The translations under genes were made by a program, and so were the position numbers. The notes under the pieces are model-generated. The model had not been told where the DNA came from. It saw nothing but the letters and a program-made list of their open reading frames with translations, and ran no database searches. A DNA stretch of 64,000 nucleotides from Lytechinus pictus. Lineage: Eukaryota. Position 1 is the stretch's first letter, and each line of letters opens with the position of its first letter. The DNA is taken from assembly GCF_037042905.1 (NCBI RefSeq), contig NC_087250.1:15254001-15318000 (forward strand). The letters run 5' to 3'. Positions 11,205-58,200 of this stretch are shown here, one piece after another.

Positions 11205-14200
11205 CTAGTACAGATAACAGGGAAAAACACAAGCATGTAATAAATGTATTCCAACAAAATTGAGGTTAAGATGAGACTTATATAAATTGACTTGAAACCC
11301 TGAAATTAACAAATATTTTAAAGCAAACACTTACAGCCCCATCTTACAAATGGAGATGTCTCAGCGACATCTCGCAAACTTAAAGTAGCTGAGACATCTC
11401 CAACATAAATGTGTTTTCGGTCTGACCAAGGAGACATCTCTGCGGCAACTCAGAGACATCAGGGGTCCATTTCATTAAGGACTTACAACTGTTGTAACTT
11501 TGCCATTATGGCAACTACCATGGTAACAGGGCTCAGCAGCCAATCAGAATCAAGGTTGCCATGGTAGTTGCCATAATGGCAAAGTTACAACAGGGGCCCG
11601 TTGCAGAAAGAGTTGCAATCAATCGCAACTCTAAAAAAATGCGTAACTTGATTTTCTACCAATCAACAGCGCACATTTGGGACTTGCGATTGATTTTTTG
11701 ACTTGCGTTTAAACGCAACTCTTTCGCAACGGGCCACAGTTGTAACTCTTTATGAAACAGGCCCCTGGAGACAAGGTGACCTGCATTATATCTGATGGTC
11801 ACGGGGGATGTTACTGCAAAGCCTCAGAGTACTTGACTTTTCTTAGTTGCAGCGACGTCTCAGAGCTGTTTCCGACACGTCGCAGTGACTTTGCAGCAGC
11901 ATCCACTGACTGTCAGGCAAAGAGCTTGTCAACTTGTCTGCAGAAGTCTCTGCAGCTCACCAAATCTGGATTTGCAAAGTAGTGGTAAACAAGTTGCAAG
12001 CCCAGTGAGCTATAACCTTTAAGTTTCAAATGGATTCTAATGCAAAATATTTGCAGAAACTGAGACAGCCGTGGTAAAAACTGACCATCAAGAAAAAATT
12101 CTGATATTTTCAAAAAGTAGAGCAGACTGTTGACTTTCTGATTTTAAAGCCTTTACTCTGGAAAATGAGAGTGGTAAATACCTGATCTTAACATGTAACT
12201 CCATGACTGATAGAAGCTATCCATTAGAGTATGTGTCCTGCATACCAGTCTGCACCAAGAGGCAAGCTTCTGCTCACTGTGGGGGGGATACAAAATAAAT
12301 AAATAACTAGAGCTGAAAATGTATTAGGCAATGGGAATTATATATATAATGCATAATGAAAAAACAACACATTTTCAGAATTAAAGGTACAAGACGTTGA
12401 AGCAAACAATTATTTCATGAGAAAGTCTTTTGAATCAAGATTTATTGTCAAAATATTATCATACATCTAGATCAGGGGAGCGTTTCATGAAAGGACTTGT
12501 CGGACGTTTTATCCGACAAGTACTGTTTTATCCGACAGTTACCACAGTAACGGTGCTTCTCAGCCAATCAAAGTCAGGGAAAGATGTCAGATCTGACAAC
12601 TTGTCGGACGAAAATGTTGATGAAACACCCCCCTGGTACATCAATATAAGCTTATCTTTGTAAAATCATGAAATCTTAGCTCAAAATCGATAATTCTGAT
12701 GATCACCAACACAGAAAAGCATATGTGGGACAGTGTATTAATATTGCTTTGAAAAATACCTGACATTTGATGGAATTCCGTGCTTATGATGCTCATTTGA
12801 CTATAATTTTCAAAGATTAGATTTAAAGAAACATTTTCACAAATTTGTTAAAAGATCAAAGTTTTTTGCAAGTTTGAGATTCATGATACTTGCAAATGCT
12901 TGACTCCAAAAGGCCCATATTCTCAAAAGAGGTTTCAATTGTACCATGGTACAAAACCATGAATTAGTGCTTCCCTTAATGCCCTTTGCCAAAAGTGTGC
13001 ATATAATCGTTATTTCTTAGCGTACGTGATGAAATAAGTGTACATATGTACACAAATCTGCAAAGGCCATGGTCCAATTGAAACCTCTCGAGAATACAGG
13101 CTTAAATATCGATATAGCTCAATTAGGAATAAAGTTTTTAATGTAATTTTTTTATATAACAGTATACATACTTGAGTGCTTGACAGACGAACGCCTTGAA
13201 CCGAGCTTCATGACTTCTTCTGAGTGGTTCATGTGTTTCTTCTACATGGTCTATGGCGGCGAGAAGCGTCTGTCGTGAAGTGATGGCCGTTCCGCCAACG
13301 ATGTCAAGGTCGAAGGCTTGCGAGAGACGACGAGCGGGTGATTCGGCAAACTGCTTTCCTTTCTGTAAAGATAACAAACAACCGATCGCTGAACAGAGTC
13401 GTAACCACTATACCTACGGAGACTTCAAATTGGCCACACTGGTGATGTCATAGTGATGTAAGGTAGGGGCTACACTTCCATTGGCTCCAATATACACTAA
13501 ATGGCTTAAATGTAATTTTCATTATTTCAATTTGTATTATTTCTTCATGAGGACATATAACATTGTGCTATCTGTGCTACATTTTATCTATTACTGCCCC
13601 AGGGGTATACATACTTACGAGAAAACATCAAATCCCCAACAATTCAGTACACAACCAATGGGAAAGTTATCCCTACCATTTGTCATGACCGACTTACCAA
13701 ATTGCGAATTTGAAAATGACAGTCACAGTGATCTCATTTTTTAAACTACTATAACTTACACTTATTCCTAGTCTGATTTTTTGGGGTTAAATTTCACTAT
13801 TCTGTTTTTTCCCTTATTTTTCTCATCTGTCACACAGCATTTCATGACCAAGGTTAGATTCCCCATTAACTCTTAATGTGCCATTCACTGTAATCAGCGA
13901 GTACCATTTTTTTCAGAGTATATATTTAATTGTTTTATTCATAAAAAAAGGGAATCACTCCTGAGACAATTATGTTGAACCTCTTGACCATAAGCTGAAC
14001 TGAACAATGGAATCAATCATGCATGCAATGCACTCCTCAAAATGCAATAGGCATTACAATAGCTGTATGACCATTGCACGAAAATGTGTTTGTGGCACTC
14101 CAGTGGATGCACAGATATGTGTTCATGGCACGTTAAGGGTTAAAGGCACAATGAAGAGTTGGATTGATGCCATGACATTCACTCCAGCAACAGTAAAGAA

Positions 14201-20200: not shown

Positions 20201-23200
20201 ACAAATCTGATGGTCTAGTTCATATGTAAGTTGGAAGAAGACGTACCTTAAGTTCTTCTTTAGTTTTTCCTTTGACTTTCTTCCTGTTTTTCACACCACC
20301 AGGATGTGTACAGCATTGGGTATCTGATCCTCCGTCAGAACCAGCATCGATATCACGAGAAGGCGGGGCCTAGATACGGAAAGAGAAGAAATATCATCAT
20401 CATCGTTGTCGTCATCATCGTCATCATCATTGCCACAATGACGTTCACCACCTCCATGTACCATTATCATCATCATTATGATAATCAATACCACTCTCAT
20501 CATAATATTCTTCATCATCACTACCATCAACATCATCACCACCATCAGCATAATTGTCATCATCACCATCATCATCATCATCATCATCATCATCATTATC
20601 ACCATAGCAATGATCATCACCATTCTCATAATATATATCACCACCAATACCACCATCATCATCATCATAATGATATACTCGATTCAATAAATTTATTAAA
20701 ACATATCACGTTCCATCCATTCCAAGAGGGTCATCATCACGTTTATTATAACTATCATCATCATAATAAATCTTCATTGTCATAATCAACATCACCATCA
20801 TAATAAATCTTCATCGTCATCATCATCATCATAATCATCATCATAATAACCATCATCATCACAATCATAATCACATGTATCTTTTAATACTACCATCATC
20901 ATCCTCATCATCCTCATAATCATCATCATCAAGCAATAACAGGTACTACTCACAAGTTTGTGGACCTCACATTCACACAGCTCGTCGTTAGCTGATAAGA
21001 CCAGAGGAGATTGCGCCTCATCTTGTAAATAGTTGATGAATCTCTCCAGATCAACTATCTGGTTCTTGAGCTGGTGTATCACCTGTTCTTTGACCTTAGC
21101 TGGGTTGACGATCTGAAAGAGAACAGATGAGATATTGATTTTACCATTCTGTAACTTGTTTTAGCTCAGTTGGAAATTACACTATATTCTGTGACATGAA
21201 TATTCATGAGGCGTAGTCTCACTAAATAAACTCTATTGGGTACTGAGTCGGCCGAATCGACGTCAATATAGTCTTTACCGTAGCTTACGTGCGACTTTAC
21301 AAACAAAATTGTGAACCTTTGTTAACAACCATATCAAGGCTAATAGAAATCAGGTACGCTTCAATTACTAGAAGAAAGGATCACCAGGGCCCTGTCTTAC
21401 AAAGAGTTGCGATTGATCCAATCAATCTCAACTGCATGGAAATCCATCCATATTATAATTTTTCTACAAAAAATCTGCACAATCTCCTAATAGTAAACAA
21501 AGAGAATCACACTGAATCTTCAAGAGAACGATGAATGTATGAATATACATCGTATCTAGAAAATATTTTGAACAAATTTGCATTTTAGATGTTGACGTTG
21601 CAGGCTGTCCATAGTTGTGGTTGATCGGATCAATCACAACTCTTTGTAGACTGGGCCAAGTTGTTTGTTTGATCGTAACTAACGAAAAGTTTTATGAAAT
21701 ACACACCTGATTATTTATCTGACTGATTTGTCATCATCACAATCATTTTTAACATCAAACATAGTATTAAAACAAAGCTCAGAGAGAAAAGAACAAATTT
21801 ACGTTGTGCAAGCAGCAAGCTAGAATCCAAGAACCCATGAAAATTGTAATGCAGTTTTTATAGAGACATCAAACATTATGAAATGTACATGAAGTGGGCT
21901 AATCTCAATACTGTTCAAATACAATCAATCTTCGATGAAGTTTTGGTAACACAACATTTTTCTCCTGCAACATTTGCTCCAGGCTTCATTTTGTCTAAGA
22001 TGTAGGGTTCAGGGGTGTGAGTGGTCACAAATAAAAAGATCTGAAAAAAGCTGAAGAGTGTTGAAAAAATCTGAAATAGAAAGAGCTCCCATAACTTTTG
22101 TACAGAGGAAAGCCAAAAATAAGCTGAAATTAAGCTGAAAATCAAAACAAACAAATGTCTGAAATCAGCTAAACATCTGAAATCTCACACCCCTGAGGGT
22201 TAGGGTTAGGGTTGCAATAGGGTTTCATGTTAAGTTCAGGCTGAGGTTTAGGGTAGGGTATAGTGTTAAATTAGGGGTTGAAATTAGTCATGCGATTAGT
22301 GAGTGGAATTCATAGTGGAGTAATAGTCGCGGGAGCAAATGTTATGTAATCAAAGGTTCAAACTTACCCTCCCGATGGCACTGTCGACCCTCTGTTTGAG
22401 TTCCTCAGTGGAGAGTTTCTCAAAGTCTTCCAGATTGAGGTCCAGTTTGTTCTTCAGCTGATCAATAATGGTGCCTTGTTTCTCCATCACCTTTGTGTGA
22501 GGGAGATTACCAGTCCCTTCCTGCAAAGTAATAATGGGTGATATCAATTCTTTTAAAAATTGTTTGATCAGCTCCGTTCATCAAATTGGCAGCATTCCTT
22601 CAAAAGTTTAGTGAATATGACAAATGCATTTGAAAGTTGAATTTTTTTCATTTTACATTGAAGGACAATTCTGAAGTTTCCATTCCATTGCAAATTTGAG
22701 AAGTTAAAGATTCTTCTTCAAAAAGATAGATGTAGTTTAATCTACCATTGCCAATTTGAGGATTTTATTCTGATTATTTCAATTTTGCAAGAAACCAATC
22801 AAGCTTATTCTTGAGCTGTTCGATAATGGTTCCTTGTTTCTCTATTACACTTGTGTGAGGCAGATTACCAGTCTCTTTCTGGAGCAAGCGAAATGTGTTA
22901 TATTTCTTTACAAAATTGTTTGATCAGCTCCATTCATCAAATTGGCAACACTAGTATTATCACTTTCACTGCAAATTAATCAATTCAAAGTTTATACACC
23001 ACCAGAACTGAATATGAATTGATAGATAATGCCTTTGAAAGATGGAAATTTGCCAATTTGCTTTGAAGAAGTGCAATTCTGACATATCCATATCAGAGGG
23101 CTTTGTTTAAAATTATCATTTCATTTTAACAGACTCTGATCATGCTCATTCCTGAGCTGCTCAATAATGGCTCCTTGTTTCTCCATTACATTTGTATGTG

Positions 23201-26200
23201 GCAGATTCCCACTGCCTTCCTGGAGTGCAAATAATGACTCTTTGATCTGATAAATGAAATAAATAATATAGGATTTGTATAGCGCACGTATCCACCTTAC
23301 TAGGCGCTCCTATATTACCCCGGCTAAGCTAGTCTACCGATTCTGGTGCGCACAGCGTTTTGAGGAATTACTTCCTGCCGATACCCATTTACCTCACCTG
23401 GGTCGAGTGCAGCACAGTGTGGATAAATTTCTTGCTGAAGGAAAACACGCCATGGCTAGGATTCGAACCCACGACCCTCTGTTTGAAAGGCGAGAGCCAG
23501 AACCACCAGACCACGACGCGCCCACACCATCATACATTCTTCAAATTGGCATCTTTGGTCCTTTTTTTTCTTTAGAAGTATAGTGTATAACCTTGAAATC
23601 TATCAATAATTTAGAGAAAAGGACCTTCTTACCTCATATGCAAACGTCTCAATATCTTCCAGTTGATTTTTCAGTTGGCTGATGAGCTCTGCTTGCTTCT
23701 CTCTCTGCTCTGTGATTTTACTCTCATGCTCTCGTTCGCACTGCCAAAAGAGAAAGACTTTCACAATAGCATATATACACAATGAAGATAAATATATTGG
23801 CAGTGAGAACACAACTGGGCGTTGTGGCGTGCATCTGTAATCCAAGCTACATGTACATGTACGTGTGGAGGTTGCAAATTGGTGCAGAGGTTCAAGGTTC
23901 GAGCACAGGTCATATCTTTCGGATGGTGACGTTAAAGGTCTACACCAGATGTGTATAATCATATTAATGGGCACCTATGCCCATGAGCAAGGCATTTAAT
24001 CGACAATGCTCTTTTATCCTGCACTCAAATAAATGGAAATGCTATAAGGATTCCTGGTAACTAGGTGTGCACTTGTTAAAAAAAAAAAAAAAAATCATAT
24101 CTGACTGATATGCATCTTTGAAACCCAACTGCACATACACACACACGTTTATTAGAAATTACAAATACTTAGTGCTTCACAGACTACAACTACATGTAGT
24201 TGGGTTTTTTTTTTCAATACACTTTTAATTTACTCTGCTTTATTATATGGTTATATTGGCAATGCTCACTTCCTAACTGATGAGGGACTTCTTGGCCTGG
24301 CATTGTGGTATAGTGGTTCAGTCACTTGACTGTTAATTCAAGAGTAAAGGGTTCAAATCCCATCCGGTGCTAATGTCCATATTTGTATTTGTCACTCTCC
24401 ACCCAGGTGTTAAATGTGTACCCGGTATAGGATGTGAACGTCAATGGGATTAGATTGGCATTTGTGCACCGATAAACTGTTCCTGGCCAAGATAATCCCC
24501 AGGGAGTGGAAATGGTGCACTCTATGTGTGGAACAGTGGTGGATCCAATGACCAGGGTAATGATGATTACATGTAAAGTGCTTAGAAACGCAAAGTATTA
24601 AGCACTATATAAATGTAACTTGTACGCTCTTGGCTTAATGACTATTGAAATCTACAAGATAGTTGATTACTCTGAGATGAAAAAATACTTACATCATCTT
24701 CTAATGTGTTTGCATCTTGTGATTTAGATCCTCTGACGTCAGGACATCCTTTGAAAGCAAATTCCTCCAGCTCCTTCAGTAAATCCTAGGGTCAAAGGTC
24801 AAACAGATTTATAAGGTCAAAGGTCATACATCCCCATTGGTGATTTATACGTCCACTTTTAAAGATAAATGTCAGTTGTGGTAATGATCTCAAAATGAGT
24901 TCAAACAGAATACAATAAAATTAACAACAAGTGTTTGTATACATAGATTAATGAGCAAAGTGGCTCTGGAAGAAAATGTGTAAATGCTGAGAAAGGGCAA
25001 ACAAATTTATAAGGTTAAAGGTAAAAGAAAGTACTGTACTTGCAGGAAACAATTATTTGATAAGAAAGTCTTTAAAATCAAACTTAAATGCTACCATATT
25101 ATCATACATGTAGGCCTAGATCTAGTTCTGGTACATTGAAGTAAACTAGTCTTTGTGAAATCTTGAAATCTTAGCTGAAAACAGATAATTCTGATAATCA
25201 CTAACACAAAAATGCATGTAGGACAGAGTATTAATACTGTTAGGAAAAATACCCAACATATTATGGAAAGCTTATTTTGCTAATTTCTCAGCAATGCACA
25301 TTTTTTACAGAGCCAATTTGGTGCATATTTTTTATTTATAAATACAAACACTTGGGTGGTCATTTTATTTTGTCCGAACACCAGTCTGGATATATTTGCA
25401 CCGGTGACCGCCATCATCAATCACCTATTCGACTCAGGCTTAGCTCAGACTGTATTTTCTTCCTTATTGTGGCACTGGGGTCAATTCACATTTACCTATA
25501 AAGCTGCCGAAGTTGGGGCAATGGGGTCCATTCACACTTACCTCTTTCTCTTCACCCTCTGATGTCACAACTTGCTTGAGTCTGAACTGGACTTGGGCGA
25601 AGTGAGAAGTGAGTGCAAGGAGAGAAGAATTCAACTGATCTTGTTCCTCTTCGAGATTTCTCAACTGATCTGCCATGTGAACATGACTGCAAAAAGAGAA
25701 AAGTTACACGTATGATTACTCAGCTGACCTGCCATGTGAACATGACTCTACTGTAAATAAAAGAGAAAGGTTACCAGCATGTTTATTCAGCTGATCTGCT
25801 ATGTGAACATGACTGCAAAAGAAAGAGAAAAGTTACAAGTATAGTAACTCAGCAGACCTGCCATGTGAACATGACTCTACTGTAAATAAAAGAGAAAGGT
25901 TATGAGCATGTTTGTTCAGCTGATCTGCTATGTGAACATGAATGTAAATAAAAGAGAAAAGTTAAAATGTACGTTAACTCAGCTGACCCGCCACGTGAAT
26001 ATGACTATACTGTAAATAAAAGAGAAAGGTCACAAGTATGCTAAAGCCCAGCGCACACTATGCAATGCGAACGCACTAAGATCCGATTCCAACAAGTTGC
26101 CAATCTCATCTCAGTGCAATCAGATTGCAGGCCAGCGCACATATTGCAACAGCTCTGCAGCGCGTTGCATCTCATGGCGCCTCTTCTTTTGCATGTATGT

Positions 26201-30660: not shown

Positions 30661-32899
30661 TCCAATAGAAGCCTTTTACCCGTTTTTATAATAATGATAA
30701 TGAAAATAAAAGTAATAATACAATAGTAATAATAATGAATAATAATGATAACAATAATAATAGCTGGATTTATAATGCACTTTTTGTTTTGCCTCAGAAT
30801 ACAAAGCGCTGCTATTTGTTACCCCGGCTGAGCTCGAGCTATCATCACCAGCGCATTTACAGTGCATGCAATGAATGATTCTACCTGAAACCCATTCACC
30901 TCACCTGGGTCGAGTGCAGCAGAGTGCGGATGAATTTCTTGCTGAAGAAAAACACAACATGGCTAGGATTCGAACACACGACCCTCTGTTTGAAAGGCGA
31001 GAGTCATCAGAACCACTAGACCATGACGCGCCCGACACTTGTTTTTACCCTTTATATCTACTTTTTGAGAGTAGGACATAAAGAATGAACACTGTTATAT
31101 TTTGTACTTTGAACTGAAAAGTTTATAATGACCTGACTGAAAGGGAAAATTTTACTCAACCCCCCCCCCCCCTCCACCCGAGTAGCCCCCAGTGCCGCAC
31201 CCGAGGACATTTGAGAAGGGAGCTAAATCTCCGCTTTAGGCACACGATGCACCTCGTTGTTTTTATTGTTTGTACAAATAAGTAATGTGCCCCATAAAGG
31301 CAGGCCCCGCCCCCCAAAAATAATAATAAAATTGAACTATATACTATTAAAAATAACAGAAAATCACCATTAGTGACAATTGTACACATATATTTTAAAA
31401 CACAATTAACGCAGTTTGGGTGGGGCCTACATAAAAAAGCCATATTAATTGCATTCTATAGTGTGGGGCAAATTATGTAGCCGATACGAGAGAGGGTCGA
31501 TATATACGTAAGGGCATTAAGAGAAGGTTTTAATTAAATGCCCTTTCATGCATGACATGAATTTCAGATATCATTCACCTATAATTCAATCTTCTCTGGA
31601 CTATTCATGACCTTTCAGGGGCCGCAAAAAACAAAATGAACAAACAATATGAAATAAAAGCGAATCAACTCCAGGGACGAGATCGATTGTCTATAGAGTA
31701 AAAAAAAAATTAATTCACGAAGGGCACATTTCATTTTGAAAAAGACCCCACATTTTATTTTGAAAAAGGGTACATTTCATTTTGAACAAAGGGATTTTTT
31801 AATCATTTATTATTATTTTTTTTAATTATTTTTTGGGGGGTGGGGGAGGGGGGGGGGTTGCCACCTGCCCCCGTATCATTATGATCACAATTAGATCCAA
31901 CTTAATTCACTCCATGTTTCCATTGTAATGCAAACGCAGAACCTAATTAGTGCCATGCATTAGGCATATTATTTCCATCTGGTCTTAATTCATCAAGAAA
32001 ATAGATGATAATCTTTATGTTTAAATCTAGCTAGAACAAGAGTTATTAAAAGGCGTGAATATGCGTCTGCATTGGGGGGGGGGGTTAATTTGGTGCCCCT
32101 CAAATGACTATTAAAACAGCTGCCCGGGGGCACAGAAAGAAATATAATTTTATGTCAAAATTGATCATCACAAAATCGTATAATTTTATGTCTAAAAGAT
32201 TTAATTTTTCGTTCACTTGCATTTTTGTAATTGGGGGGGGGGGGGGGATTTGCCTGAGTTTTGGGGGCCGATCGAGGGGTATTCATGCACGTCATACTAT
32301 TCTAGTGGGGGTGAACATAGATATATATATAGAAAACTAGGATCACCCCCCCCCGGCCCCGGCCTTAATGAACAATTATTCACCCATCACGATTAAATCA
32401 ACAAATATATGCTTATGTAGGACGCGGCGTACCCTTTCCCCCCCCCTCTCTCTCTCTCTTATCTCTTATTCTCACCCGCATACGCACTCACTTGCACACA
32501 CTTCATCTTGCCCCTTTTTCTTCCCCCTTTCCTTTTATTATATTTTAAGCAATATAAGTGACATCACTTTTAAATAATAAAGACCAACTAAAGTATTTTT
32601 ATTATGGTTTCCATGTAGCCTTCTCTTCCCCTGGCTGCTATTATTTCAAGCTTTCAGCTTACGATAGCTGGCCTCTGCATTTAAATTCATTTGTTATTGT
32701 TTACATGAATTATGTCTATATAGGCCTATATCTAGTTAACTACTATACAATTGTCACCTTATTTGTATCTTTATGTATGTTTGATTTTATATCATTGTTA
32801 TAAATTTGTAATTTTGATTTATTAATAAATGCAAATACCTACTTTAAAATCTCCAAAATTTTGTGGCCCGCAGCAAAATAATATTTTGAGCGTTATGGT

Positions 32900-35260: not shown

Positions 35261-37709
35261 AATCCAATCATCTAACAAAAATCTTACTGATATTTTTATT
35301 AAATATATCTTAAAAATTGTTAGAAAATTAAAATGTTTTAGAATAAAATATAAAATTTTGAAGTGAAACATTGTTGAACTTAAAAATCAGATGAATCATC
35401 ATGGCATCACACACACGCAGCTACAAGTTCGCACTGATCACAAGACTCAAAACGAAAGCTGAAACAACTAGTTATGAAAACTCATACCTTGCTCCTCCAA
35501 TCACATCACCAAATCAGTATTATGAAAATCCATATAATTATTTTTAAAAAATTCCCGACGATTTTGTGATTATTTTTGTGGAAAAAGTATTTTTCATGTG
35601 AGATTGTTCACTGTGATTGATCGGGGATGTGCAGGTCCGGAGGACAGGTGTGCACCAGCTTGTACATGTTTGTATGCTGACTTTGTTTGTGTGTGTCTTT
35701 GTGTGTAGATTTGAGAAAATAGCGCAAACCGGCTTGCAATATGAATTCAGGGAAGTCCTGTATTTTTGCTTTTGAAATATGGGAAAACTTTGTAAAATTT
35801 CATTTCACAGCACTTGAGAACTGCTTGCCCGAATCGGGCAAGCAGTTTTTGCCTTTACTTCAGAACACTTGCCCGACTCTAACTGATGATGATAAGGATG
35901 ACAAAAATGATGATGATGCTTGTGATGGTAAATGTGTTGAAGCCAAACTGCCGAACCAAACAGAAGCTTGCCAAACTTGGCACTTCCAAACCAAAGCGAA
36001 CACAAAGTCAAAGGCTTGGTTTGATGGTTTAGTATGAAATATCAGACTCATTTTTTTTTTCAAGTGTCAATAAACAAAATTTAGTTCTGTATGTAGGGGG
36101 CACCATACAGAATAATAGACATCTTCATTGATTAGTTATTGTTACACAATGAATGTATATTTTCAAAATCCACCGTGAAAGCTTCTGCCTCGCCTTTGAT
36201 TCATTGTTATAAATTTTATAGCATTGTTAACCATGAATATATTTTTTCTCTTCATAAAATGGTAGGAGATTTGAAGCTAAACTTGGCATGAAAGTGTGAG
36301 TAATTAATTATATGACCATAATGGGTCATAACCGTAATAGTGAGTCAAAAGTCATATTTTGTTCGTTTTTAGACATAAAATTCCTTCCCCCCAACTGACA
36401 AAGTGCATACATGTATTAAATGGGGAAATGTATTTTTCATCTTCTGAATTACCAGTACATGAAATAATGAGGCTAGAAATGGAATCCCAAAGAACACAAA
36501 AAATTACAACGTCATATAGCAAGCAAAGCATCTAGTACCCTGATCGTGTTTAGGAAATTTTTTGATATGGTAAGTTAAAATAAGAGACAAACATCCTCAA
36601 CTGCTTTTATTAATAGGCCTTCTGGTAAAATTCATATTTCATAACATGAAATGTGATTCCAAAGTCAATATTTTCTTAAAAGTGGTTTCATCTGGTGTTG
36701 AATAATAATAAATAATATAGGATTTGTATAGCGCACGTATCCACCTTGCTAGGTGCTGGAGGCGCTCCTATATTACCCCGGCTAAGCTATTCTACCGCTT
36801 CTGGTGCGCACAGCTTTTGAGGAATTACTTCCTGCCGGTACTCATTTACCTCACCTGGGTCGAGTGCAGCACAGTGACTGTGGATAAATTTCTTGCTGAA
36901 GGAAAACACGCCATGGTTAGGATTCGACCCACGACCCTCTGTTTGAAAGGCGAGAGTCAGAACCACTAGACCACGATGCACCCAATTACTGACTCTAAAA
37001 ATAAGCTGAATTATCGGTTCCTCCTTGGTGTTAAAAGGTCGATGCCAAGTAATGTGTGCAGTGTTATAGCTACAGTAGACAGGAGTGGTCGGCCCAACCG
37101 GCACAGAAAATTTCTGACCACCAGTCATCATTATATATAAATAAATAGAGTAAACTTCACAGAGCAAAATGCTGAAAATTTCATCAAAATCGGATAACAA
37201 ATAATGAAGTTATTGAATTTTAAAGTTTATCAATATTTTGTGAAAACAATTATATGCACTTAATATGCACATCATCATGAATATTCATTAGGTGGCCTGA
37301 TGATGTCATATCCCCACTTTCCTTTTTCTACTGTTATTACATGAAATCATAATTGATTCATTTTTCATACATGTGTAAATGATGTGTCTCTATTATGATG
37401 AAATAAGTTGCGGCAATAAATAACAAATGTACAAATCAGTTGTCAATCCAATTGTTTTAGTTCTTGGTAGAAAATTTTTGAATAAACAATTTCATATAAT
37501 AAAAAAAAATAAAAAACCAAGTGCGGATATATCATCACCAGCCCACCTAATGAATATTCATGAAGACATGCCTAGAACTGTTATCCAATTTTGATCAAAT
37601 TTTCAGCACTTTACTCTGTGAATTTACTCTATTTATTGAGATAAAAATATCTCCAGCCTGGACCATCACTTTAAAGATTCTTACGCATATATTTGACAAC
37701 GGTTTATTT

Positions 37710-39529
37710 CCCAGGACCAAAATCCAATTGAAACCAGTTGGATTTCCAACTGGTTTCAATTGGTTTCAATTGGTTTCAACTGGTTTCAATTGGTTTTAAC
37801 TGGAATTTAACAATTTCCAGTTGAAACCAATTGAAACCAGTTGGGCAACTGGAAATCCTAACTGGAACCAGTTGGGTAACTGGAAATGACTTCCAATTGG
37901 GAATGATTTCTAACTGGAACCAGTTGAGCAACTGGAAATCCCAACTGGAACCAGTTGGGCAACTGGAAATCCTAACTGGAACCAGTTGAGTAACTGGAAA
38001 TGACTTCCAATTGGAAATGATTTCTTACTGGAACCAGTTGAGTAACTGGAAATCCCAACTGGAACCAGTTGGGCAACTGGAAATCCTAACTGGAACCAGT
38101 TGGGTAACTGGAAATGACTTCCAATTGGAAATGATTTCTAACTGGAACCAGTTGGGCAACTGGAAATCCTAACTGGAACCAGTTGGGTAACTGGAAATGA
38201 CTTCCAACTGGAAATGATTTCTAACTGGAACCAGTTGAGTAACTGGAAATCCCAACTGGAACCAGTTGGGCAACTGGAAATCCTAACTGGAACCAGTTGG
38301 GTAACTGGAAATGACTTCCAATTGGAAATGATTTCTTACTGGAACCAGTTGAGTAACTGGAAATCCCAACTGGAACCAGTTGGGCAACTGGAAATCCTAA
38401 CTGGAACCAGTTGGGTAACTGGAAATGACTTCCAATTGGAAATGATTTCTAACTGGAACCAGTTGGGCAACTGGAAATCCTAACTGGAACCAGTTGGGTA
38501 ACTGGAAATGACTTCCAACTGGAAATGATTTCTAACTGGAACCAGTTGGGTAACTGGAAATCCTAACTTGAACCATTCAGTTGTGTAACTGGAAATCCTA
38601 ACTGGTACCAATTGGGTAACTGAGATGACTTCTAACTGGAAAGATGGGTAACTGGAAATGAATTCTAATTGGAACCAGTTGGGTAACTGGAAATTATTTC
38701 CAATTGGTTTCCAATTGGAAATTTTCCAGTTACCCAACTGGATCCAATTGAAACCAGTTAATTTGCATATTATTTGCCAGTGTGCACAGATTAATGTTTT
38801 ATGAGATTAATCATCATTAACAATGTATCTATTTAATTCTTTACAATTTCAAGTACCACACTTTTTAAAGATTAGTATTTAGAATACTTAGCAGTGAAAA
38901 CCATGTTCATAAATGTTATAGATTATAATTAAAACAGATTAAAGGATAATTAGTACACCACTAACTGTTACCAAATTACATCAAATAAAAGTACATATAT
39001 TTGAAGATCTTCCATATAAATATATATACATGAAAGTCTGTATTTTATCAATGCCCTTTACATTGGTATTAATAGACATATAACACTGCTTCTGTGTTGG
39101 CATGATAAATAGTTACTGCAAATGCTAATTAATTTGTAACTAATTAAGTTCGTTCCAACTGGAAGTTCCAATTGGATCCAGTTGGAAACCAATTGGTTTC
39201 AACTGGTTCCAGTTGAAACCAGTTGCCTCCAATTGGTTTCAACTGGAACCAATTGAAACCAGTTGCCTCCAATTGGATTCAATTGGTTTTAATAGGGAAA
39301 TTGGAACAACTGGAACCAATTGACAACAATTGCCAACTGGTTCCAGTTGCCCAATTGGTTTTAACTGGAACCAATTGGCAACTGGTTTTCAATTGGTTTT
39401 TAACTGGAACCAATTGGCAACTGGTTTTCAATTGGAACCAGTTGTTCCAATTTCCCTATTGAAACCAGTTGGCCAACTGGTTTCAATTGGTTTTGCCCTA
39501 ATTGGTTTTAACTGGATTTTGGTCCTGGG
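37710..39529. mobile_element. 1.8-kb non-autonomous element with CCCAGGACCAAAATCCA TIRs and large arrays of AACTGG/CCAGTT repeats (EnSpm/CACTA-like)
   Basis: 17-bp perfect TIR ending in CCC/GGG, T-rich flanks compatible with a 2-3 bp TSD, subterminal tandem arrays. Confidence 0.75.
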
Positions 39530-46200: not shown

Positions 46201-49200
46201 CATAGATACTAAGCATTCGGCCCATTTTTGGTGTTTTAAAAAGCAAATTTGCTCTAATAAAAATGCTGATAGTTTAAAAACAAGCACATGAACCCCTATT
46301 TTTTAATGTTTGTACCTCTTAGATATACCTTCCTCTACAACTCTGCAAATTTTGGTGAAAATGACATGGATTTTGAATAAAGTGCAGCATTTATTGTACG
46401 TTTGTAGTTTGTTACTGAAATTTTACATTTTTCAGATTGCGAATTTGTTATCTTTTACGCCATTTTTAAGAACTGACAGTGCTGTTAAACTTAAAATTGC
46501 AAACAAATAGCACTATTAATAGATTATCCATTCTAACGATACAATTATTAACTCTCTTGCAAAATTTGATGACTTTTTCATGTATTTTGAATGAGTAATG
46601 GAGGTTTAAACTTATTGTAGTAATCTTGAGCGGTCTAAAAATGCCAAATTCTTTTGAATGCGCAATTCTTAAGAACATCAATTTGGGTGAACTTTGAAGC
46701 TCTATAGCAAAAAATCAAGCACATGGACCTATGTTAATTTTTGCATATTTAAAATATTAAGGTTCTTAAGTATCTATGTGCAAAGTTTGGTGAAAATGAC
46801 ATGGATTTCACTTTAACTGTGGAACGTCCTTAAATAGTAAAAGCAAGAGAAGTAGAAATCATTCATGTACATGTATGATGGGTGTTTCAGATACATAAAG
46901 TATTAATATGTATACTTTTAGATACCTCTTATTTTGGTGTTCCCCAGGGAGCTCTTGTATAAACATTATTCCTCTTATTTTGGTGTTCCACAGGGAGCTG
47001 TTGTATCACCTAGTGATGAAGATTCTCAGACCTTCATGGTGAATGCTGCTAATGGGGAAGTATATAGACTTCGTGCTCAAGATGCCAAAGAGAGACAGCT
47101 GTGGGTTAGCCGTCTGAGGTCTATCGTCCAGAGACAAAGGGATATGCTTATGGTGAGGTCATAATTGTAATAATAATAATAATGGCATGTTTACTCACGT
47201 TAGCCACTTCATTTCCGAAAACTGTTCTCCCAACAGGTCCTGCTATTATTATTATACTTCTTCCTGATTTATGGGCTTTGCCCGATGTCCTTTTCTTACC
47301 CCATTACTCCCTCTATCCTGCACTTTTTTCTGAGTTTTAATTTCTATACTAAAGAGATAAAGGATGTGCTCATGGTTAGGTCATAGAACTGCGCCTCAGA
47401 ATGGTTTACTAGATAGATAGCGCATAATAAATGCTGTGTTTATTGATTAAATGACCATACCTTCTTTCCATCAAGGATATCAGTGACCCATCCATTATAT
47501 TTATCATCAACAAAATCAAATCTTCGCAAGAACTCGCTTTGCAGCTGTGTTTATTTTACAATGTGGTGTTGTGATACATATATGATGAATTTCTTTTTGC
47601 TGTTGTCTTTTTGCACCTTCAAATAGAGTGTTCACTGGATCTAGATTTGCGTCTCAATCTGGTGTCTTTTTCATTTCTTTAAATTTTTTCCTTACCACAG
47701 GATTTCAGGGACCCGTCCCTGACAGCATCTTCCGAATCCCTCCACAACCGCACATCGTCAAAATGGAGTCTCCACAGGAACTCGCCACGCAGCTCGGTCT
47801 CCTCTCATGCCGGTGGCAGCGGTGGGATGCCGAGGCAAACCAGGACATCGGCCACACTGACCGCAACGCAAGAGTCCTTGAGGAATGCAAAAGACATCCT
47901 GATAGTAGCCGAAGAACAACAGAAGAGCATGGTCAAGGGATTGGAGGTAAGGGTTTGCTAACCAAGTGAGCGTTTCATGAAACAATCAGTGATTTTCACT
48001 GAGTATTGTTATTGGCTACTGTAGAGGTGTTGTGGCTCAGTGGATAAGTTTCCAGACTTTGAACCGCAACGTCCTCGGTTCAAATCCCACCGCAGCACTC
48101 GCGTCCTTTGGCAAGGCGTTTATCTACATTTGCCACTCTTCACCCAGATGTAGTGAATGGGTACCCGGTAGGAAGGAATTCCTTGAATGCTTGTGCGCCC
48201 GATCAGGGTAACCGTGCTGAAGCCGGATTAATAGTATGCAGCGCTTAGAAACATTTGTTTTAAGTGCTGTATAGATGTTGCATATTATTATTATTATTAC
48301 TATAAACCGTTGCATATTATATGCTCCGAGCAAATAAGTCTGAAAATCACTGACAAATATTTTCATGAAACACTTAATCTTTAAAAAAATGTCAGCTCTA
48401 CCAAAGCCAGTGTAATAAAGCTTCATTATTGTAGCATGCTTTCATAGAGACTTCTGATAAAGTAGTGATAAGTGCTCTTATAAAGCATGTGTAGGTATTA
48501 TGATTATTATTGTTTTATTTTCTCTTTCTCATTTTTTAGTCATTACCAACCACAGGACCAGGTATCAATAGCTTAGACCATGTGAGTATGTTTTCTGCAT
48601 TAAACCTGTTTTTAGATTATAACTAAAACCCTATGGCCCTAATTTATTAAGGTGGTTTTGAAAGACATCGGTTGAACCCATGGTTTATGCAGATTTTCTG
48701 TATAAATTACGCTTAATTAACTATTGAAAAATGCCCAATACTGATGCGCGCTTTTGTCAGAGTGCACCAAATTGACATCTGTTGCCATGTTTAAGTACGT
48801 ATGCTATTTTATTCATAAGTCCACTGTTTTGAATAGTGGACTTATTAATATAAAACAAAGGACTCATGAATAAAATAGCGTACTCAACCCTGGCAACAGG
48901 GTCAATTTGGTGCACTGTTACAAGAAGGCATCAGTATTGGACATTTTTCTATAAACATTGTAAATTATGTACTTCTGAGGGTCTTGGGTTCAAGTCCAAG
49001 CCTCGGCGTAATTTCCTTCAACAAGAAATCGATCATCAATGTGCTGCACTCAACCCAGGTGAGGTAAATGGCAGGGAACCCAGGTGAGGTAAATGGCAGG
49101 GTTCCCAGCCCATCAGGAAAATCATGGAAAATTGTTTTACTTTTTTCCAGTCAGGGAAAAATAAGGGAATTTGAAAAAAATACCTCAAATCAGGGGAAAA

Positions 49201-52200
49201 TGCCTCAAATGAGGGAAAAATCTGGAAATTTTGATCGGCCCAAAAGTCAAAAGCACGGTAGTCAGTCAGACTCTGTCATATTTTTTTGCATATCAAAACA
49301 ACATCCACTGAATGACTGGTTATGGTGGTACTATTTAGTTTTATATTATTGTTTTTATACTGAAAATACATGTAATTCACTGCAACAACTTAGAAAACAT
49401 GCGAAACTGGGAATGGGTTCAAATAACTATCAGGGAATTTTTAAACTTCGTCAGGGAAAAATCTGGAAATTTTGTTTTCTTGTAAAGCTGGGAACCCTGA
49501 ATAGGTATCAGCAAAAAGTAATTCCTCAAAAAGCTGTGAGCAAGGGAATCGGTAGACCAGCTTTAATAGTGGAGGTAATGTAGGAGTGTCTTGACCACCT
49601 AACAAGCTCGGTGAATACTGTATGTGTGCTATACAAATACCTAATAGTATTATTATTCCCTCTCATCCCTTTTTTTGCTGCCTTTCCAGGATTGTTTATT
49701 ATTGAAAGCAACTTCCCAAGCCACTATGGAATGCTTAGAAGACTGTCTCACGATGCTGCAACGCCAGGAGTTGACCCAAGGTCAAAGGTCGGCCGAGGAG
49801 CTTGAACTCTCACAGAGCATGGCCAACATCAGGTACATGTAATGTGTTGTTTTGTGGTAGTTCTTGTATATTAATGTAGATTACGTTACAAAATAGTGTA
49901 TTAGTGGGACTGAAGGCAATCTTCAGTAGTGGTACATGTATGAGAATGTTTATTGGCTTCAAGGTGCTGTCAGTGAATCATTTCATTTTATTGCAGATCC
50001 CAGTGGCTATTACTTTGTAACTTATAATCTTTTCAAGTCCTGAGCTTGTAATTCCCATTTACGTTTAAATGTTTTATTTTTAAGAGGCTGTGTGTAGGGC
50101 TGACCTAGCTCTAGTGAATGACCTGTTCACACATGTTGTTGCATGGGTTTCAAAATGTTTTTTTTATATCGCTGTTCATGAACTCTTGACATTTTTCAGA
50201 TGATGTTCATACATATTGCCAAATGCAGCAATCTGTATGACATGACAACATCAATGACACCTTAACTATAATTTATGTCAGAAGTATTACATGTAAGCCA
50301 TTTACCACAAGGTGATAATGCAGTGCCCTGTGGGACACCAAAAGTTATGCATGATACATTTCAGATGGGGAAGTACTGTTTTGTCCACTCGTGAAAGAAT
50401 GAAATTGTCCATTGTGAGCAGTGCAATGTCTTGTGTAGTTGCTTAGACGTGCATCATGCTATAGTGCATATCATGCATTATAACATTTCTGCATGAGACA
50501 GAAGTTCTTGCTATCTTTAAATAAGAACATTGGTCTTTTTTTTTCTCTAGGAAAAGAATTATCAGACTACAGAGTGACTTTTATGAACAAATAATCAGTT
50601 TACAATATATTGACAGTATGATGAAATCATAATGAAAGTTATGTGTGTGTACATTTAAAAAACACATTTTCTTATCAATCACCAATACTGACAAGTGTGC
50701 ACTCCAACTAAAATTATCCTAGATTTTAAATTTTAATGAAGCTATATCCAACATAATCAAGTATTTTTTGCACATGCACAGTATAGTCGACACTATTTTT
50801 GTAATATACATTTTAATTATTCAAACAACTCAGTTCTCGACTCCATTAGTCAGATGTGTGTTTTACTTTTATCAATTAATGCATTTTCTTGTTAGGTCTA
50901 TTAATATTGGTTCTTGAATAGTAATGTCCATAGAAAAATTAAAGAGATACACTGAATGATTAAGAAAAAAAATTGTCAGTTTAATGGAAATCCTTGTCAA
51001 GAACACCATTTTTTATGTCGTGAAAGATTATTTTCTCTGACATAATTTTATACCATTGGAATAGAATAGGAGGTATTCTGTGGTCTTATTCATAGGTGTA
51101 CATGTACATGTAAAATTTGATATGTGCCAAAGTAATGTATGGTTTGCTGAGGAGTACAGTTGTCTGACTATTGCAGTGGTAAGTGATGAACACCTGAAAT
51201 TTGTCAGTGTTGATATGTATCAAACTACTGGGTTTTTTTTTTTTGGGGGGGGGGGTGTGGTTCTCTTTCAGGACATAAAATTTTTGTTTTCTGATTAGTC
51301 TTTTCATTTAATTGACATTTATTAAAATTAATTTTTCAAACACACTCAGTATATCAAATACATTGTATATTAGAGTATATATATATATATATGTATCAAA
51401 CTATTGGGGTTTTTTTTTTTGGGGGGGGGGGTCTCTTCTCAGGACATAAATTTTTTGTTTTCTGATTAGTCTTTTCATTAAATTGACATTTATTAAACTA
51501 TATTTAGAGAATCTTTAATTATGTAATATAATCATCCTGAATAATATGATGTAATTATTGCATCAATATATGAAAGGGTTTGATGAAGACCTGTAAGGAA
51601 AAGTGATTGAGCAATCATCATCCCACCCTTACAACAAAATAACAGTTGAAAACACATGTACATGTATATAGAGACCTTCCTCTCTATCCAGCATGAATTA
51701 GATTTTTATTGAAATATCATTATTACCCCAAATCAACAAGGGATTTCATCAGACTTGCCTGCTTATTTTCACCTTTGTTCTTGGTATCTCTTCATCTCTT
51801 TTGTTTACTGTACTTGTACCTTCTCTTCTGCTTGATTTTATGTCTTTTTGAGGTGCACTTTGGGATGGTCCAGGCTGGAAATATTCATATCTCAATAAAA
51901 AGAGTAAAATTCACAGAGCAAAATGCTGAAAATTTGATCAAAATCGGATAACAAATAACAAAGTAATTGAATTTTAAAGATTTGCATTATTCTGGTGAAA
52001 CAGTTCTAGGCATGTCTTTATGAATATTCATTAGGTGGGCCGATGATGTCATATCCCCACTTGATCTTTTGTATTCTATTATTTGAAATTAGGTTTATTC
52101 AAAAATGTTTCTACCAAGAACTAAAATAATTGTATTGACAACTGATTAAGTGCATTTGTTATTAATTGCCGCAACTTATTTCATCATAATGGAGACACAT

Positions 52201-55200
52201 CATTTACACATGTATGAAAAAATGAAACATTTATGATTTCATGTAATAACATAAGAAAAGGGAAAGTGGGGATGTGACATCATAAGCCCACCTAGTGAAT
52301 ATTCATGACAATGTGCATATAACTGTTTTCACAAAATATTGATAAACTTTAAAATTCAATAACTTTGTTATCCGATTTTGATGAAATTTTCAGTATTTTG
52401 CTCTGTGAATTTTACTCTATTTATTTAGATAATTTCAGCCCGGACCATCCCTTAAAAAAAAAGGATCTATGTTGTGTATGCTAATTATTTGCATCCTTTG
52501 TTTAATTCCTAATAATGTAGGGCCCCCGGGTCTCATCGCAAGGCAAAACAAATCAGGTACCCTTGACTGTATGCTTGTTACAAATCATGAAATCATTGTA
52601 AAGAATTATTTTTATAATAAAATTGGTGGATTTGTATTTACAATCTAAACTTTTTGTCATTTTGGCTGGTTCATTTCCATTCATTATTTACTACTAACAT
52701 CTAACAAGCATTTATTTATGAAACTGGTTTGTGTTATTTTCAAATCCATTCAGGACTGAAATTAGTAAGAATTTGGGCATATTTATTGTCACTCAAATTA
52801 ATATTTACTACATTTCATTGATTAATTCTACTTAATTCTTCTTTAAAAATCCTACATGTACTTACTAATTCTACATGTACACTACCGGTAATTTGACAGA
52901 AAGTCATTTTTGAGTGAAAATTTTAAGAATATTTGCCATATTCTAAGAATACATTATTGAGGATTGAGGATGCTTTGTCATTATGCCATATTCGGATTCA
53001 GATTTTATATCAGGATATAGATCTAAGTTTGTAATAATAGTGATAATAATAATAGCATGGATTTATATAGCGCACACACCATCCAAATGAAAAATCTCTT
53101 TTCTGATAGTATAATTTGTGATAAGGAATAGCTCCCAACTTGTTAGTCAGGCTCTTACATGTAATTGAAAAGATATTACAAAACATCCGGCTCCTTTAAG
53201 GGTTATTGGGTGGGTATGGGGGGGGGGGTCCTTAGAATGGGTTTAGATGCTAACTATTTATTTCTATAACACTCATCAACCACTTTTTTAGGGAGTTGGT
53301 CTCAATATTTTGATTTGTTCACATGGATACATATATCATATCCAGACTTTTGTACCCCCCTCTACCCCACCACATTGATGCATACATGTATTATGGAATA
53401 GTTTCACTTGTGTATGTTTGACTGTGTGTTATGTGTACTTTGTACATTTTATGTGATAACCCCTATTCCCATTTTCCTTGCCATTCGCTCTCCAACTGTA
53501 CATGTATACATTCTTAAAAATATATTCTATATAGGTTTAATTCTTCTCCGCAGATTTCATTGTATGTGTATGTATGTGTTTGCTGGGTTCATTTGGATCT
53601 GTGTAAGTGTGTCTCTGTCTCCCCTGTTTTGTTTCTGTCTACCTGTCTCTGTTTACAATGTCTGTCTGTCTGTCTCTCTTCCTCTCTTTTTATCCCACTC
53701 CCCAAGTTTGTTTGCATTCCTCTCTATACCCTCCTGGTTCTTGCTTCGTCTCTTTTCAATTATTTATCTGTCCTCTCTCTACTTTTCTTTCTCATAACTA
53801 TTATTTTCTCTCTTTCTTTTTTCGTCCTCTGCCCATTTCTCTCTTTCTTCTTTCTGTATTTCCTCTCCCCTCTCTCTCTCTGCTTTTACCCTGAGTCCTC
53901 CTTTTTTTCTTATAAATTTAAATAAATAGCTATCCCATTTTTTTTTCAAGCACTGTATGTACCTTACTCCTGAATTAGACCCAATATTATTACAACACAT
54001 TCCAGTCGACATTCCATGCATTTGGTTCATTGGACATACAGCTATATATTTTTTACACAGTTTACATACATGTATGGGGAATCCAGTGTGTTGAAAGTTT
54101 GAAAGAAATCAGACAATACAAATTTTATGGACATTTGATCAAGACAGGATCAAGACTGTGTAATCTCAAATTGGCAACTCGGTCAGTACATGTCACATGT
54201 GATAAGAGACAACTAATCCATTTGTACTTACAATTTTTTATGTTTTTTTAATGTGTTTCAAGAAGGCAATTTAAGGGGATTTACCAAACTTTAAAGAGGG
54301 GTTCAAAAGGGGAATGAAACACTTGGAACAAGTTAGGTTGTATGAAAACAAAAGAATATAAAGATATAAACAACAGTTTAAGAACAATTTGACAAAATGT
54401 CAAAATCACTATCATATGTAGATCCTCCTATTGGCAATGTGACCAAAATTAGTGATGTCACACAAGTATAACTCTCCTTTGAATACTGAAAATATACCCC
54501 AAAACGTATAGTTTTTTGCTCTATCAAATGATATTACTAACTTTTGTTTGTGATATTTTTTATGTGAGCACCTGATCTTTGGATAGACTTCATAAAAGTG
54601 ACAATTTTATGTAGAAAAGTAATTGGGGAATTGTACAATAGTAACATCACACTGAAACAAGTTAGTTGCATTGCCAATAGGGAGATGTCCACATTATTAG
54701 TGATCTTGCCATTCAAATGCTCATAACTTTTTTATTCTTTGCTCAATCTTTCTCACATTTTTGTTGATTTGTTTCTTTGATTTTTCTATTTTCACACAAG
54801 TTAACTTGTTCTAGAGTTTAATTTTCCTTTAATCTGTGCCCCGTCTTACAAAGAGTTACGATTGATCCGATCAATTGTAACTGTGGAAATCCATCAGTGT
54901 CATTTTTTTTTTCTACGAAAAATTTGCACAAAGTCCTTTATGTGCAAAGAGAAGCGCAGTGAATTTTCAAGAAAACAATGAATGCGTGAATATACATCAT
55001 AGCTAGAAAATATTTTGAACAAACATGCATAATAGATGTTGACGTCGTTGGCCCTCCATAGTTGCGATTGATCGGATCAATCGTAACTCTTTGTAAGACG
55101 GGGCCCAGATCTTTGAAGAGTCTTTGAAAGGAAACCGAATTCATTTTTTTTCCTCTAAAGTTTTAGAGAAACAAAAATTAATTCAGTTTCCTTTCAAAAT

Positions 55201-58200
55201 AAATTAACTTCCAATATGTTAAAAGAGACGACAAAAGTATGGAATCCCATTGAGCACAAGAACTGGTCACATGGGCTCGGTCTCACAAAGAGGTGGCGAT
55301 TGTAGATTTTCATCAAACTCGGAAATTGCGATTGATCTCAAATTTCTATACTAATTTAGATCAATCACAATTTGAGGTTGATTAGAATCTGTCACTTTGT
55401 GTGATGGGGCCTCGACATGTGTAAAACTTGTGTGTGAAGACTTCCCAACAGCATTAAGGCATGGTCGCACTGCACTTATAGATGCAGAGAGGATGTAAAA
55501 CGGAAAAGAATCTTGCCCTCTGTTGGAAAACGTTATGTATCCGCTGTGTACTCTTTGCATAGTTACATGTTTCATATGCTCTATATCCATCGAGCATCCG
55601 TCCACTGTGATTAATTGTTCGCCCATTTTGTCCATTGTCTGGAGGGGATGAAAATGGATGGAGCCACCCCGAAATTTTGCTTGTCCGCTGTATCCGTTAT
55701 GGATGCATTTTGTGTCCGTTGGCCAGTGCGACCAGGCCTTAAGAAACCATTCCCAGGGCCCCGTCTTATAAAGGGTTGCGATTGATCCAATCAATCACAA
55801 CTATGGAAAGCCAGCAAAGTCAACATATGAAATACATGTTTATTTAAAAAAAAATTCTAAGTATGAATGTATATCCATAAATTAATTGATTTCTTGACAA
55901 TTTGGTGTGATCTCCTTTGTTTACAAAAGACATTTTGCAAATTTCCTGTAGAAAAAATTATGACACTGATGGATTTCCATAGAGTTATGATTGATTGGAT
56001 CAATCGTAACTATTTGTAAGACGGGTCCAGATGTGTTTATTCCTAGTATTCTTAGATTATGAAGAGAGGCTGCTTTGCAGTTTATTGACTTAATGATAAT
56101 GAGCATCCAAGATGTTGATTTTGGTCACTCGTTAATTAGTTGTAAATTCCAGTAACCAGGGACAGTGCTAAGGAGGGGTGTTGTGGTGGGAACAGGAGGG
56201 GGGTAATGGTGCCCCTCCTCACCCCCCCTGATTCTTTGAGTGATCAAAAGAAACAAAATAAACAACACAAAGGTATTTGGTGAAGAAGAAGGAATTCCGG
56301 ATTTCGAGATAGAGAAGCCTTTGCGTAAATGTAAGTTTAACTGCGCAAGACCTGTTATCTGGTTTATACAAATAACAACTTTAACAGTGGGTCCTGTTGC
56401 TCCCCCTCCCCTTCTCAAACAAAGTCCATAGCTGGAACTGCCCCAGTCTGTTAAACAGTAATGAATTAGTATGTAGTGCTTTCAGGTGCACATGTAAATG
56501 TACCATGCGTTACTGATAGTAGTACCTTTAGGCTTTACACATTATGACATATTTCATCCATTTTGCGTCCTGAATTCTTATTTTGAGGATAATTCCGTGC
56601 AAGAAAATTCTCAACTTCCATTGGATAGCATAATTCATGAGGTAAAAATTATTTTCATAATATACTGGATATACACTATTATTTGTCTCACGTTTATAAT
56701 AGATCTAGGCTTTTTTTGCTTGTGTAAGTGTACTACTTGCATGTATCATGTTCCAATGAAAAATCAACAAAAAGAGGCAGTAATGAAACAGGTACTTTGA
56801 ATCCTGCCTATTGAGGTTTGATAAAGATTCAATATAAATGTGAATTTATATTACTGTACTAGAATGAGACTTTTAGGAGCCAGGGATTGAACCCATGACC
56901 CACTGTTTATGAGGCGGGCACTCTACCACAGAGCCACCATGCTATACAAAAGAATGCATTGGGCCCCGGACCCTGGAATCACCCCCGTTTGTGGAGAATG
57001 TTGACCTCTTTTTTATATCTTGGGTCCCCGGCCTCATTGGCCTCCCATGGGCATCTTCTAGGAACCAGAGTGAATATATATTGATATTTGTTTGAAATGA
57101 ATTCAATTCTCATAATCTACACAGTGTTGACATCAGGACACACCTCCCGGAAACCAGACCCCCTGCGGATCACCAAGCCATCCAATCAGCAAGCAGCAGA
57201 GCGATGACATCACCGCAGAGGGGCGGACCCGGAGGCATAGGCGGACCCAATACCAACACATCTCATAATGTACCAACCCCTTGTAAGTTGTGCTTTGTGA
57301 GATTTTATTATTCATTTTGATACATGATTAGTGCCTCAATTCTTTTTATTTGTTATTAGTGTTCATATCACTTTGTAAATTATGCAAAAAATCGGGATGG
57401 TGTTTTCATAAAGCTGTTTGTAAAGTTACACACAACTTTACGAACGACTGGAACATGTTCTTATACAGAAGTCAGCTAGATAGGGATATATCATATAGCA
57501 CAAGAAAGGGTCACCAGTCGTTCATATAGTCATTCGTAACTTACAAACAGCTTTATGAAATGGGCCTTGGGTGTGTAACATAAGATATGATTGATATTTA
57601 CAATCGATTGTAACTTATTGTACATGGTTTGTATAAACTTACAGTTACAATTAATACATGTAGTTCAGTAGATTGTATCTTCTATGGCCTTGATGTTTTA
57701 ATGAAAACCATTTTGTATTTTCATCCGTCTTACATGCATCAGTAAGCCACGATGATGAGGTCGCTGATGCGGATGATGATGCCGATAAGGACCTCGGTGG
57801 AGTCGAAGAACATAAGAGCATCATCCTCCATCTACTCTCTCAACTCAAACTAGGAATGGATCTGACAAAGGTAGGTCCGAGGGTTCATTGGTGGAAATCC
57901 CAGGGGGGACACGTCCCCCTACCCAAAAATAGTAGGGGGGACACAATATCAAATGTCCCCCCTACAATTTTTGGTATTTTATGATGGCAAGAATCGAAAT
58001 AAAACATGTATTTTGGATGAGATGACCTTACTTTTTGGATGATAACCTTTTTTTGCTTGACAAATATATTTTGGTCGAAATGATCTAACATTTGGGGTGA
58101 TAACTTTTTATTTTTGCCTTTGCTTGTCAAATTGTCCAGCCCCTGGTCCCCCTACCTTTGGGGAGAGATTTCCGCCCTTGCGAAGGTTAATAGCCATTTG

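Follow-up and report, generated by a model that had tools for sequence, protein, structure and literature searches.

The element at 23814-24146 is, in our reading, a defunct member of a SINE family of sea urchins whose head is a 7SL/tRNA-Deu chimera; the family would have originated by template switching and would work through RNA polymerase III and a LINE. We give this reading a probability of roughly 0.8. What is established is a series of parts that are joined in many copies and represented by sense-strand RNA: first about 47 nt of 7SL-like sequence, next a linker and a B box, and finally a short Deu/Nin block with a (CA)n tail. A bolder version, in which this would be the first SINE with a 7SL head from any invertebrate and a minimal Alu occurring in nature, we consider somewhat more apt to fail than to hold. 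In that version the element would have taken from 7SL only the ~46-nt 5' domain that binds SRP9/14, and its B box from a tRNA/Deu SINE; it would be transcribed by Pol III and would dock on ribosomes through SRP9/14, capturing there the enzyme of a LINE other than L1. The sequence-only reading had reported a 7SL-like segment and a Deu-like segment within 23814-23940. Both are present there (head 23814-23850, core 23915-23940), but the end of the span was set too early, as the element extends to 24146.

The window, i.e. the whole 64-kb stretch of Lytechinus pictus DNA that was analyzed, includes exons of RUNDC1 on the minus strand. The SINE is located inside a RUNDC1 intron, antisense to the gene and between the exons at 24693-24761 and 23633-23740 (by tblastn), and starts 73 nt from the acceptor site of the latter exon, which was delimited with tblastn of L. 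variegatus RUNDC1 and by reading the acceptor from the sequence. The invertebrate host proposed from sequence alone is borne out by these flanks, since the RUNDC1 exon at 13141-13407 (minus strand) is, at the protein level, 93% identical to its counterpart in Lytechinus variegatus and 88% identical to the one in Strongylocentrotus purpuratus. Another exon of the gene, 22365-22577, has left two decayed partial duplicates within one intron (22798-22872 and 23130-23258, minus strand), with protein identities of 88% and 56%.

Once two later insertions are removed, the SINE is about 185 nt long. No second copy was found in the 64-kb window, and a weak match to its body at 51842-51898 (E=0.005) was taken as chance. 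Around the element there is only a 5-nt repeat that overlaps the tail repeat, and hence no convincing target-site duplication. Information on other copies came from 4 of 24 public runs, which were aligned to 23560-24280 at 80% likeness and represent two organisms, A and B. X21 is raw RNA of organism A, rRNA-depleted and stranded, and X24 raw RNA of organism B; X6 consists of contigs of organism B (DNA-type) and X1 of contigs of organism A, their type not stated.

The head (plus strand) is likely of 7SL origin, judging from sequence comparison. Its first block, 23814..23850, comprises the equivalents of helix 3, the UGUAA turn and loop 4 of the 7SL Alu domain. Counted by eye, it agrees with the Rfam Metazoa_SRP consensus (RF00017, a non-host reference) at 29/36 positions plus one inserted A, a match whose chance of arising within 64 kb lies between 2e-5 and 2e-3 depending on the base frequency assumed. 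Against the 5' end of the hagfish SINE1-1_EBu, also a non-host reference and available as a partial text, identity is 31/36 and runs from base 1 of both. A full-text literature search with a 13-mer of the head retrieved a zebrafish 7SL primer, the first 14 nt of which are identical to 23837-23850 (14/14), extra A included (PMC3566149, accessible text). With these three matches the 7SL-like head of the sequence-only reading holds. Within the first block, a 10-mer at 23818-23827 matches 8/10 letters of the human and hagfish box A as quoted in the available part of PMC7245038. A 12-nt microsatellite-like expansion at 23851..23862, private to this locus, breaks loop 4. Family contigs and reads pass from the head directly to 23863 and beyond without these 12 nt, and the octamer involved in the expansion occurs 37 times in the 64-kb window versus about two expected. 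The head then ends at 23863..23873 with the 3' strand of helix 4 and the partner of the first three bases, a segment that the Rfam alignment places at Metazoa_SRP model positions of about 41-48 with the pairs kept (GGAGGTTG stands at 23867-23874). Confident alignment to the Rfam model is confined to positions 1-48 and confidence drops afterwards.

As to how such a head could have been assembled, the ancestor would have been a tRNA-headed Deu-type SINE like the metagenomic relatives L002-L004 described below. During its copying, the reverse transcriptase would have switched template to 7SL RNA, whereby the 5' half of the head was replaced by 7SL positions 1-47, while the B box would be retained from the tRNA-type ancestor. 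RNA polymerase III would then use the 7SL A box together with the tRNA B box, and the reverse transcriptase of a LINE would recognize the 3' tail of the SINE. Finally, the 7SL piece might bind SRP9/14 and thereby bring the SINE RNA to ribosomes. A template-switch model has been put forward for heads made of 5S and partial tRNA (PMC4824008 and PMC4758252, in the sections available). For the last step the precedent is a 46-nt 5' Alu domain that, according to the accessible text of PMC11760393, is able to bind SRP9/14 and reaches 86% of the activity of Alu in HeLa, yet has no B box and hence cannot propagate alone. The 7SL-like piece of about 47 nt found here is close to it in length, and we put SRP9/14 binding and ribosome delivery at about an even chance.

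The same family and the same origin could also be combined with a more modest role for the 7SL piece, that of an A-box donor only, with SRP9/14 taking no part in mobilization, and the odds of this fall only moderately short of even. It would account well for the absence of the 3' Alu strand of 7SL. After position ~48 no 7SL 3' segment was seen but the linker, the B box and the Deu block, and the full Alu domain, in which the 5' and 3' parts of 7SL surround a central S-domain deletion, is not present. Promoter takeover alone is also sufficient to explain the DeuSINEs with 5S heads, as far as the available sources describe them. What such a donor does not explain is the length retained, about 47 nt, which equals the 46-nt SRP9/14-binding domain and not the 15 nt needed for an A box (partial source), nor why this copy should still have the motifs that the Rfam consensus shows for loop 3, loop 4 and UGUAA. 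On the side of the donor role, again, loop 4 is variable among copies: where it ends, the consensuses of loose read ends differ by two letters that are either present or absent, so that subfamilies with an altered loop 4 probably exist. Besides, the closing helix may be weakened by the letter that the majority of reads carry at 23870, and this copy did not fold better than shuffled versions of itself (z -0.7 to +1.1). Given the disagreement over loop 4 and the letter at 23870, we do not regard an intact Alu fold as established for the active family.

Downstream of the head the affinities are with Deu-type SINEs. The Deu-like core (23915-23940) begins 65 nt beyond the head block. By eye, 23915-23936 matches the Deu domain of AmnSINE1_HS at 19/21 positions with one gap, and the core of L004 matches the same domain at 28/36, in both cases against partially available sequence; the core also resembles bivalve Deu sequences from similarly partial sources. 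Only the 5' block of the Deu/Nin central domain that typifies DeuSINEs and Nin-DC elements was recognized, and not the later conserved blocks. The Deu-like core of the sequence-only reading therefore stands for this 5' block, while the SURF1 label attached to it was rejected, as SURF1 is not among the DeuSINEs in the accessible text of PMC3747384. In place of the tRNA or 5S head of DeuSINEs the 5' end is 7SL-like, and of a tRNA head the 3' part remains at most.

Relatives were sought in metagenomes with a degenerate pattern of the core, which gave four hits (L001-L004). L001 matches the degenerate motif only and was dropped as chance. The other three share core and tail with the SINE of the window (E from 2e-8 to 7e-12). 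The 5' block and body at 23909..23964 (plus strand) is identical to L004 at 47/56 positions (E=7e-12), and the 3' tail at 24093..24146 (plus), which ends in the (CA)n microsatellite, is identical to the tail of L003 at 41/54 (E=1e-6). None of the three has a 7SL-like head, the best head matches having E values of at least 2.9. Identity to them is also low (6-11/35) in the region 25-60 nt upstream of the core, which together with high read depth marks 23874..23895 (plus) as a family-specific linker. Next to the linker, 23896..23909 (plus) resembles a B box and tRNA T arm, with a B-box-like 9-mer at 23896-23904, and this motif is found at the same distance to the core in L002-L004. Its T-arm stem would have 4/5 pairs with the majority letters at 23894, 23905 and 23907, against 2/5 in this copy (by eye). 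Neither Rfam nor ARAGORN called a tRNA in the heads of L002-L004, and for this reason we call them tRNA-like only on account of box motifs seen by eye. These relatives, on marine metagenome contigs (L002:430-586, L003:440-595, L004:165-375), carry three distinct heads before one core and tail, a pattern that in sequence terms reads as repeated exchange of heads in this SINE lineage. The core pattern had no match in viral contigs or prokaryote genomes, and neither did the head pattern; the single match in a pattern scan of plasmids was taken as chance.

This shared spacing bears on the possibility that the first ~85 nt, B box included, are collinear with sea-urchin 7SL, which would leave no tRNA remnant and bring the element nearer to the classical SINE1. 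Without interruption the B box would sit near position 71, compared to 76-86 in human 7SL (available part of PMC7245038), and the head has been compared with non-host 7SL only, both of which lend the idea some credit. We nonetheless consider it unlikely, because the confidence of the Rfam alignment falls past model position 48 and the B-box-like motif keeps the spacing from the Deu block seen in L002-L004. The 7SL-headed Deu-SINE family suggested by the sequence-only reading is supported, with the amendment that its head appears to be a hybrid of ~47 nt of 7SL-like sequence followed by a B box of the type of its relatives.

Less probable still is that the head is not 7SL at all but the decayed 5' half of a tRNA, or some other RNA, with the likeness to the Alu domain arising by chance. 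The match is short and GC-rich and the Rfam scores are low. Metazoa_SRP, against which the head was to be checked, does give a match at 23814, yet one of just 17.7 bits (E=0.04 in a 1.2-kb search), far below the gathering score of 70; on 201 nt the figures were 12.3 bits and E=0.25, and a scan of the whole 64-kb window gave no SRP match at E<=1. Rfam did not call a tRNA in the head of the SINE either. No pile of 7SL RNA reads was found on the head in the rRNA-depleted X21 (depth 9-26); a human-read filter may be responsible, or the shortness of the match, or the expansion of 12 nt, but the result is otherwise unexplained. Against a chance likeness, besides its low estimated probability, are the agreement with the hagfish element from the very first base, the perfect match to the zebrafish primer and the behavior of the family. 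The majority letters at 23833 and 23834 (~42,600 of a depth of 44,000 in X6) are nearer to 7SL than those of this copy, and with majority letters the head reaches 31/36 to Rfam and 33/36 to the hagfish SINE.

That the element belongs to a family is apparent from its depth in the contigs of organism B. In X6 the summed contig depth is 36,873 over the head, 66,490 over the linker and B box and 208,470 over the core, and 1-173 over the flanks, so that the SINE exceeds its flanks by a factor of several hundred to a few thousand. Contig depth is not copy number, but depths of this order indicate a repeat family with members numbering roughly in the hundreds to thousands. The surplus over the core would be consistent with sister families in which the core follows a different head. 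As proposed in the sequence-only reading, many copies have head and body joined: 28 contigs of X6 pass at 23848 from the head to the linker, and 107 and 133 reads of X21 as well as 314 of X24 run from the body back toward the last letters of the head. The flank and the element are found together on one X1 contig (23722-23981) and on two X6 contigs (from 23718), so that A and B both have the insertion at this site, and no empty allele was seen among the matches listed. The single copy in the window and the three metagenome relatives that lack the 7SL-like head do little for a one-off juxtaposition (a 7SL retro-fragment beside a 5'-truncated tRNA SINE) or human Alu contamination. This scarcely credible alternative is largely refuted by the linkage of head and body, seen in two organisms in 28 contigs and in reads by the hundred, by the presence in both organisms of the element at this site together with its flank, and by flanks that are a sea-urchin RUNDC1 intron.

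The copy studied here is very probably inactive, given its two interruptions and its differences from the read majority, at least 18 among the sites listed in ~139 nt. At 23860-23926, one contig of organism B has 26 letters in place of the middle of the element and a second contig is longer; the pair could be either two alleles or paralogues.

In RNA, the strand convention was set by 1-2 X21 reads on the minus-strand RUNDC1 exon, which lay on plus, and by this convention an excess of first mates on minus indicates sense RNA of the family. Such an excess was found in X21 at the core (1280 vs 72) and at 23860-23884 (452 vs 8), a sense bias of 18- to 54-fold for the SINE family; over the inserted SINE the counts were 120 vs 49. 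The sense RNA fits Pol III transcription without proving it, and a single copy, or a few, embedded in abundant mRNAs could also be its source. Similarly, the A-box-like (23818-23827) and B-box-like (23896-23904) elements are to be taken as sequence motifs only. In the antisense direction of the SINE, some 24 reads of X21 have two further changes of the head in common, at 23826-23834, and probably stem from one copy inside a transcript.

The second interruption, at 23965..24092 (plus strand), is a later insertion of another and more abundant tRNA-type SINE, 5'-truncated and poly(A)-tailed. The insert is 128 nt long and flanked by an 8-nt direct repeat (23957-23964 and 24093-24100). Loose ends behind 23940 continue to the sequence at 24093 and beyond in 1258 X21 and 672 X24 reads; since reads pass in this way from the core to the post-insert sequence, the insert does not belong to the 7SL-headed family. 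Reads of the insert extend upstream into a B-box-like head, and its body is presumably CORE-like. Its depth in X6 is roughly threefold that of the core of the SINE, yet its RNA in X21 is about tenfold lower.

Other repeats are found nearby and throughout the window. A tRNA-like head (20 bits) at 24300-24371 (plus), with the sequence downstream of it, is probably a further SINE in the same intron. Another tRNA-type SINE family is represented at 23258-23524 (minus), with copies at 36707-36984, 30887-31038 and 48977-49071. There are also tandem repeat arrays at 382-1120, 61782-62421 and 37720-38760, the first two mutually related, and several palindromic repeats of MITE type. Exons at ~46900-62800 (plus), recognized by eye from ORF translations, resemble what we take to be an oxysterol-binding-protein-related gene.

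In the available parts of the sources, the only animals given for 7SL SINEs are Euarchontoglires, hagfish and shrew mole, and the elements of each retain the two ends of 7SL (PMC7245038, PMC13023118), and the 2026 paper has all of them arising via the same kind of central deletion (PMC13023118). A literature search, mostly outside subscription papers and Repbase/Dfam, returned no report of a 7SL SINE from an echinoderm or any other invertebrate, and none is mentioned in the accessible portions of PMC9367165, PMC5786205, PMC11481361 and PMC3747384. One Repbase name in the available text of PMC5786205 ends in LVa, which we read as L. variegatus, so that the family may already be catalogued under another label. 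We see this as a minority possibility to be reckoned with, and its being catalogued as a recognized 7SL SINE as improbable. SINEBase defines SINEs as short interspersed elements that have 100 copies or more and share 60% identity or more with tRNA, 5S or 7SL along a minimum of 60 nt (PMC3531059, in the part available). The 7SL-like part here is ~47 nt, short of these 60 nt, and no tRNA was called; for this reason and because the full Alu domain is lacking, we do not class the element as a member of SINE1, although it works like a SINE headed by 7SL.

If the reading is true, the sea-urchin family would represent a fourth origin of 7SL SINEs and the first outside vertebrates. It would also have followed another route, head replacement keeping the 5' Alu domain alone, unlike the central deletion. 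Such a family would be a natural test of whether selection keeps the 46-nt domain defined in HeLa (accessible text of PMC11760393), and of whether ribosome docking can serve a SINE that depends on some LINE besides L1, all in an easily injected embryo. For these purposes the present copy, old and twice interrupted, is a poor exemplar.

Several known systems, as described in the available parts of the papers cited, share some of these features. SINE2-3_SP is a sea-urchin SINE with a Deu domain (PMC4824008, PMC3747384), but it is listed as tRNA-headed, a comparison made by description only. AmnSINE1, SINE3 and OS-SINE1 have a 5' piece of a foreign Pol III RNA and a partial tRNA head before Deu (PMC4824008, PMC4758252, PMC3747384), as proposed here, but the donor is 5S in them and 7SL-like in the sea-urchin element. 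The Deu region of the latter is a short 5' block like that of BivaDeu-SINE1 (70 bp), unlike the 330-bp domain of vertebrates. Alu/B1 of Euarchontoglires and Urop of the shrew mole begin with 5' Alu-domain sequence and an A box as well, but are all-7SL monomers or dimers with a central S-domain deletion and poly(A), mobilized by L1 (PMC13023118), whereas the sea-urchin element has no 3' 7SL part and no poly(A) of its own and carries a Deu block. The closest likeness in the head is to SINE1-1_EBu of the hagfish Eptatretus burgeri, in which the 5' end of 7SL was grafted on an older tRNA-SINE lineage (PMC7245038) and which has the same first bases (31/36 identical) and a microsatellite tail. The hagfish element, however, has 7SL positions 1-96 and the 7SL 3' end, with a full Alu domain and the B box of 7SL, and its body and tail are RTE-derived, with duplications of ~17 bp; in the sea-urchin element ~47 nt of 7SL-like sequence are followed by a B box, the Deu block and the (CA)n tail.
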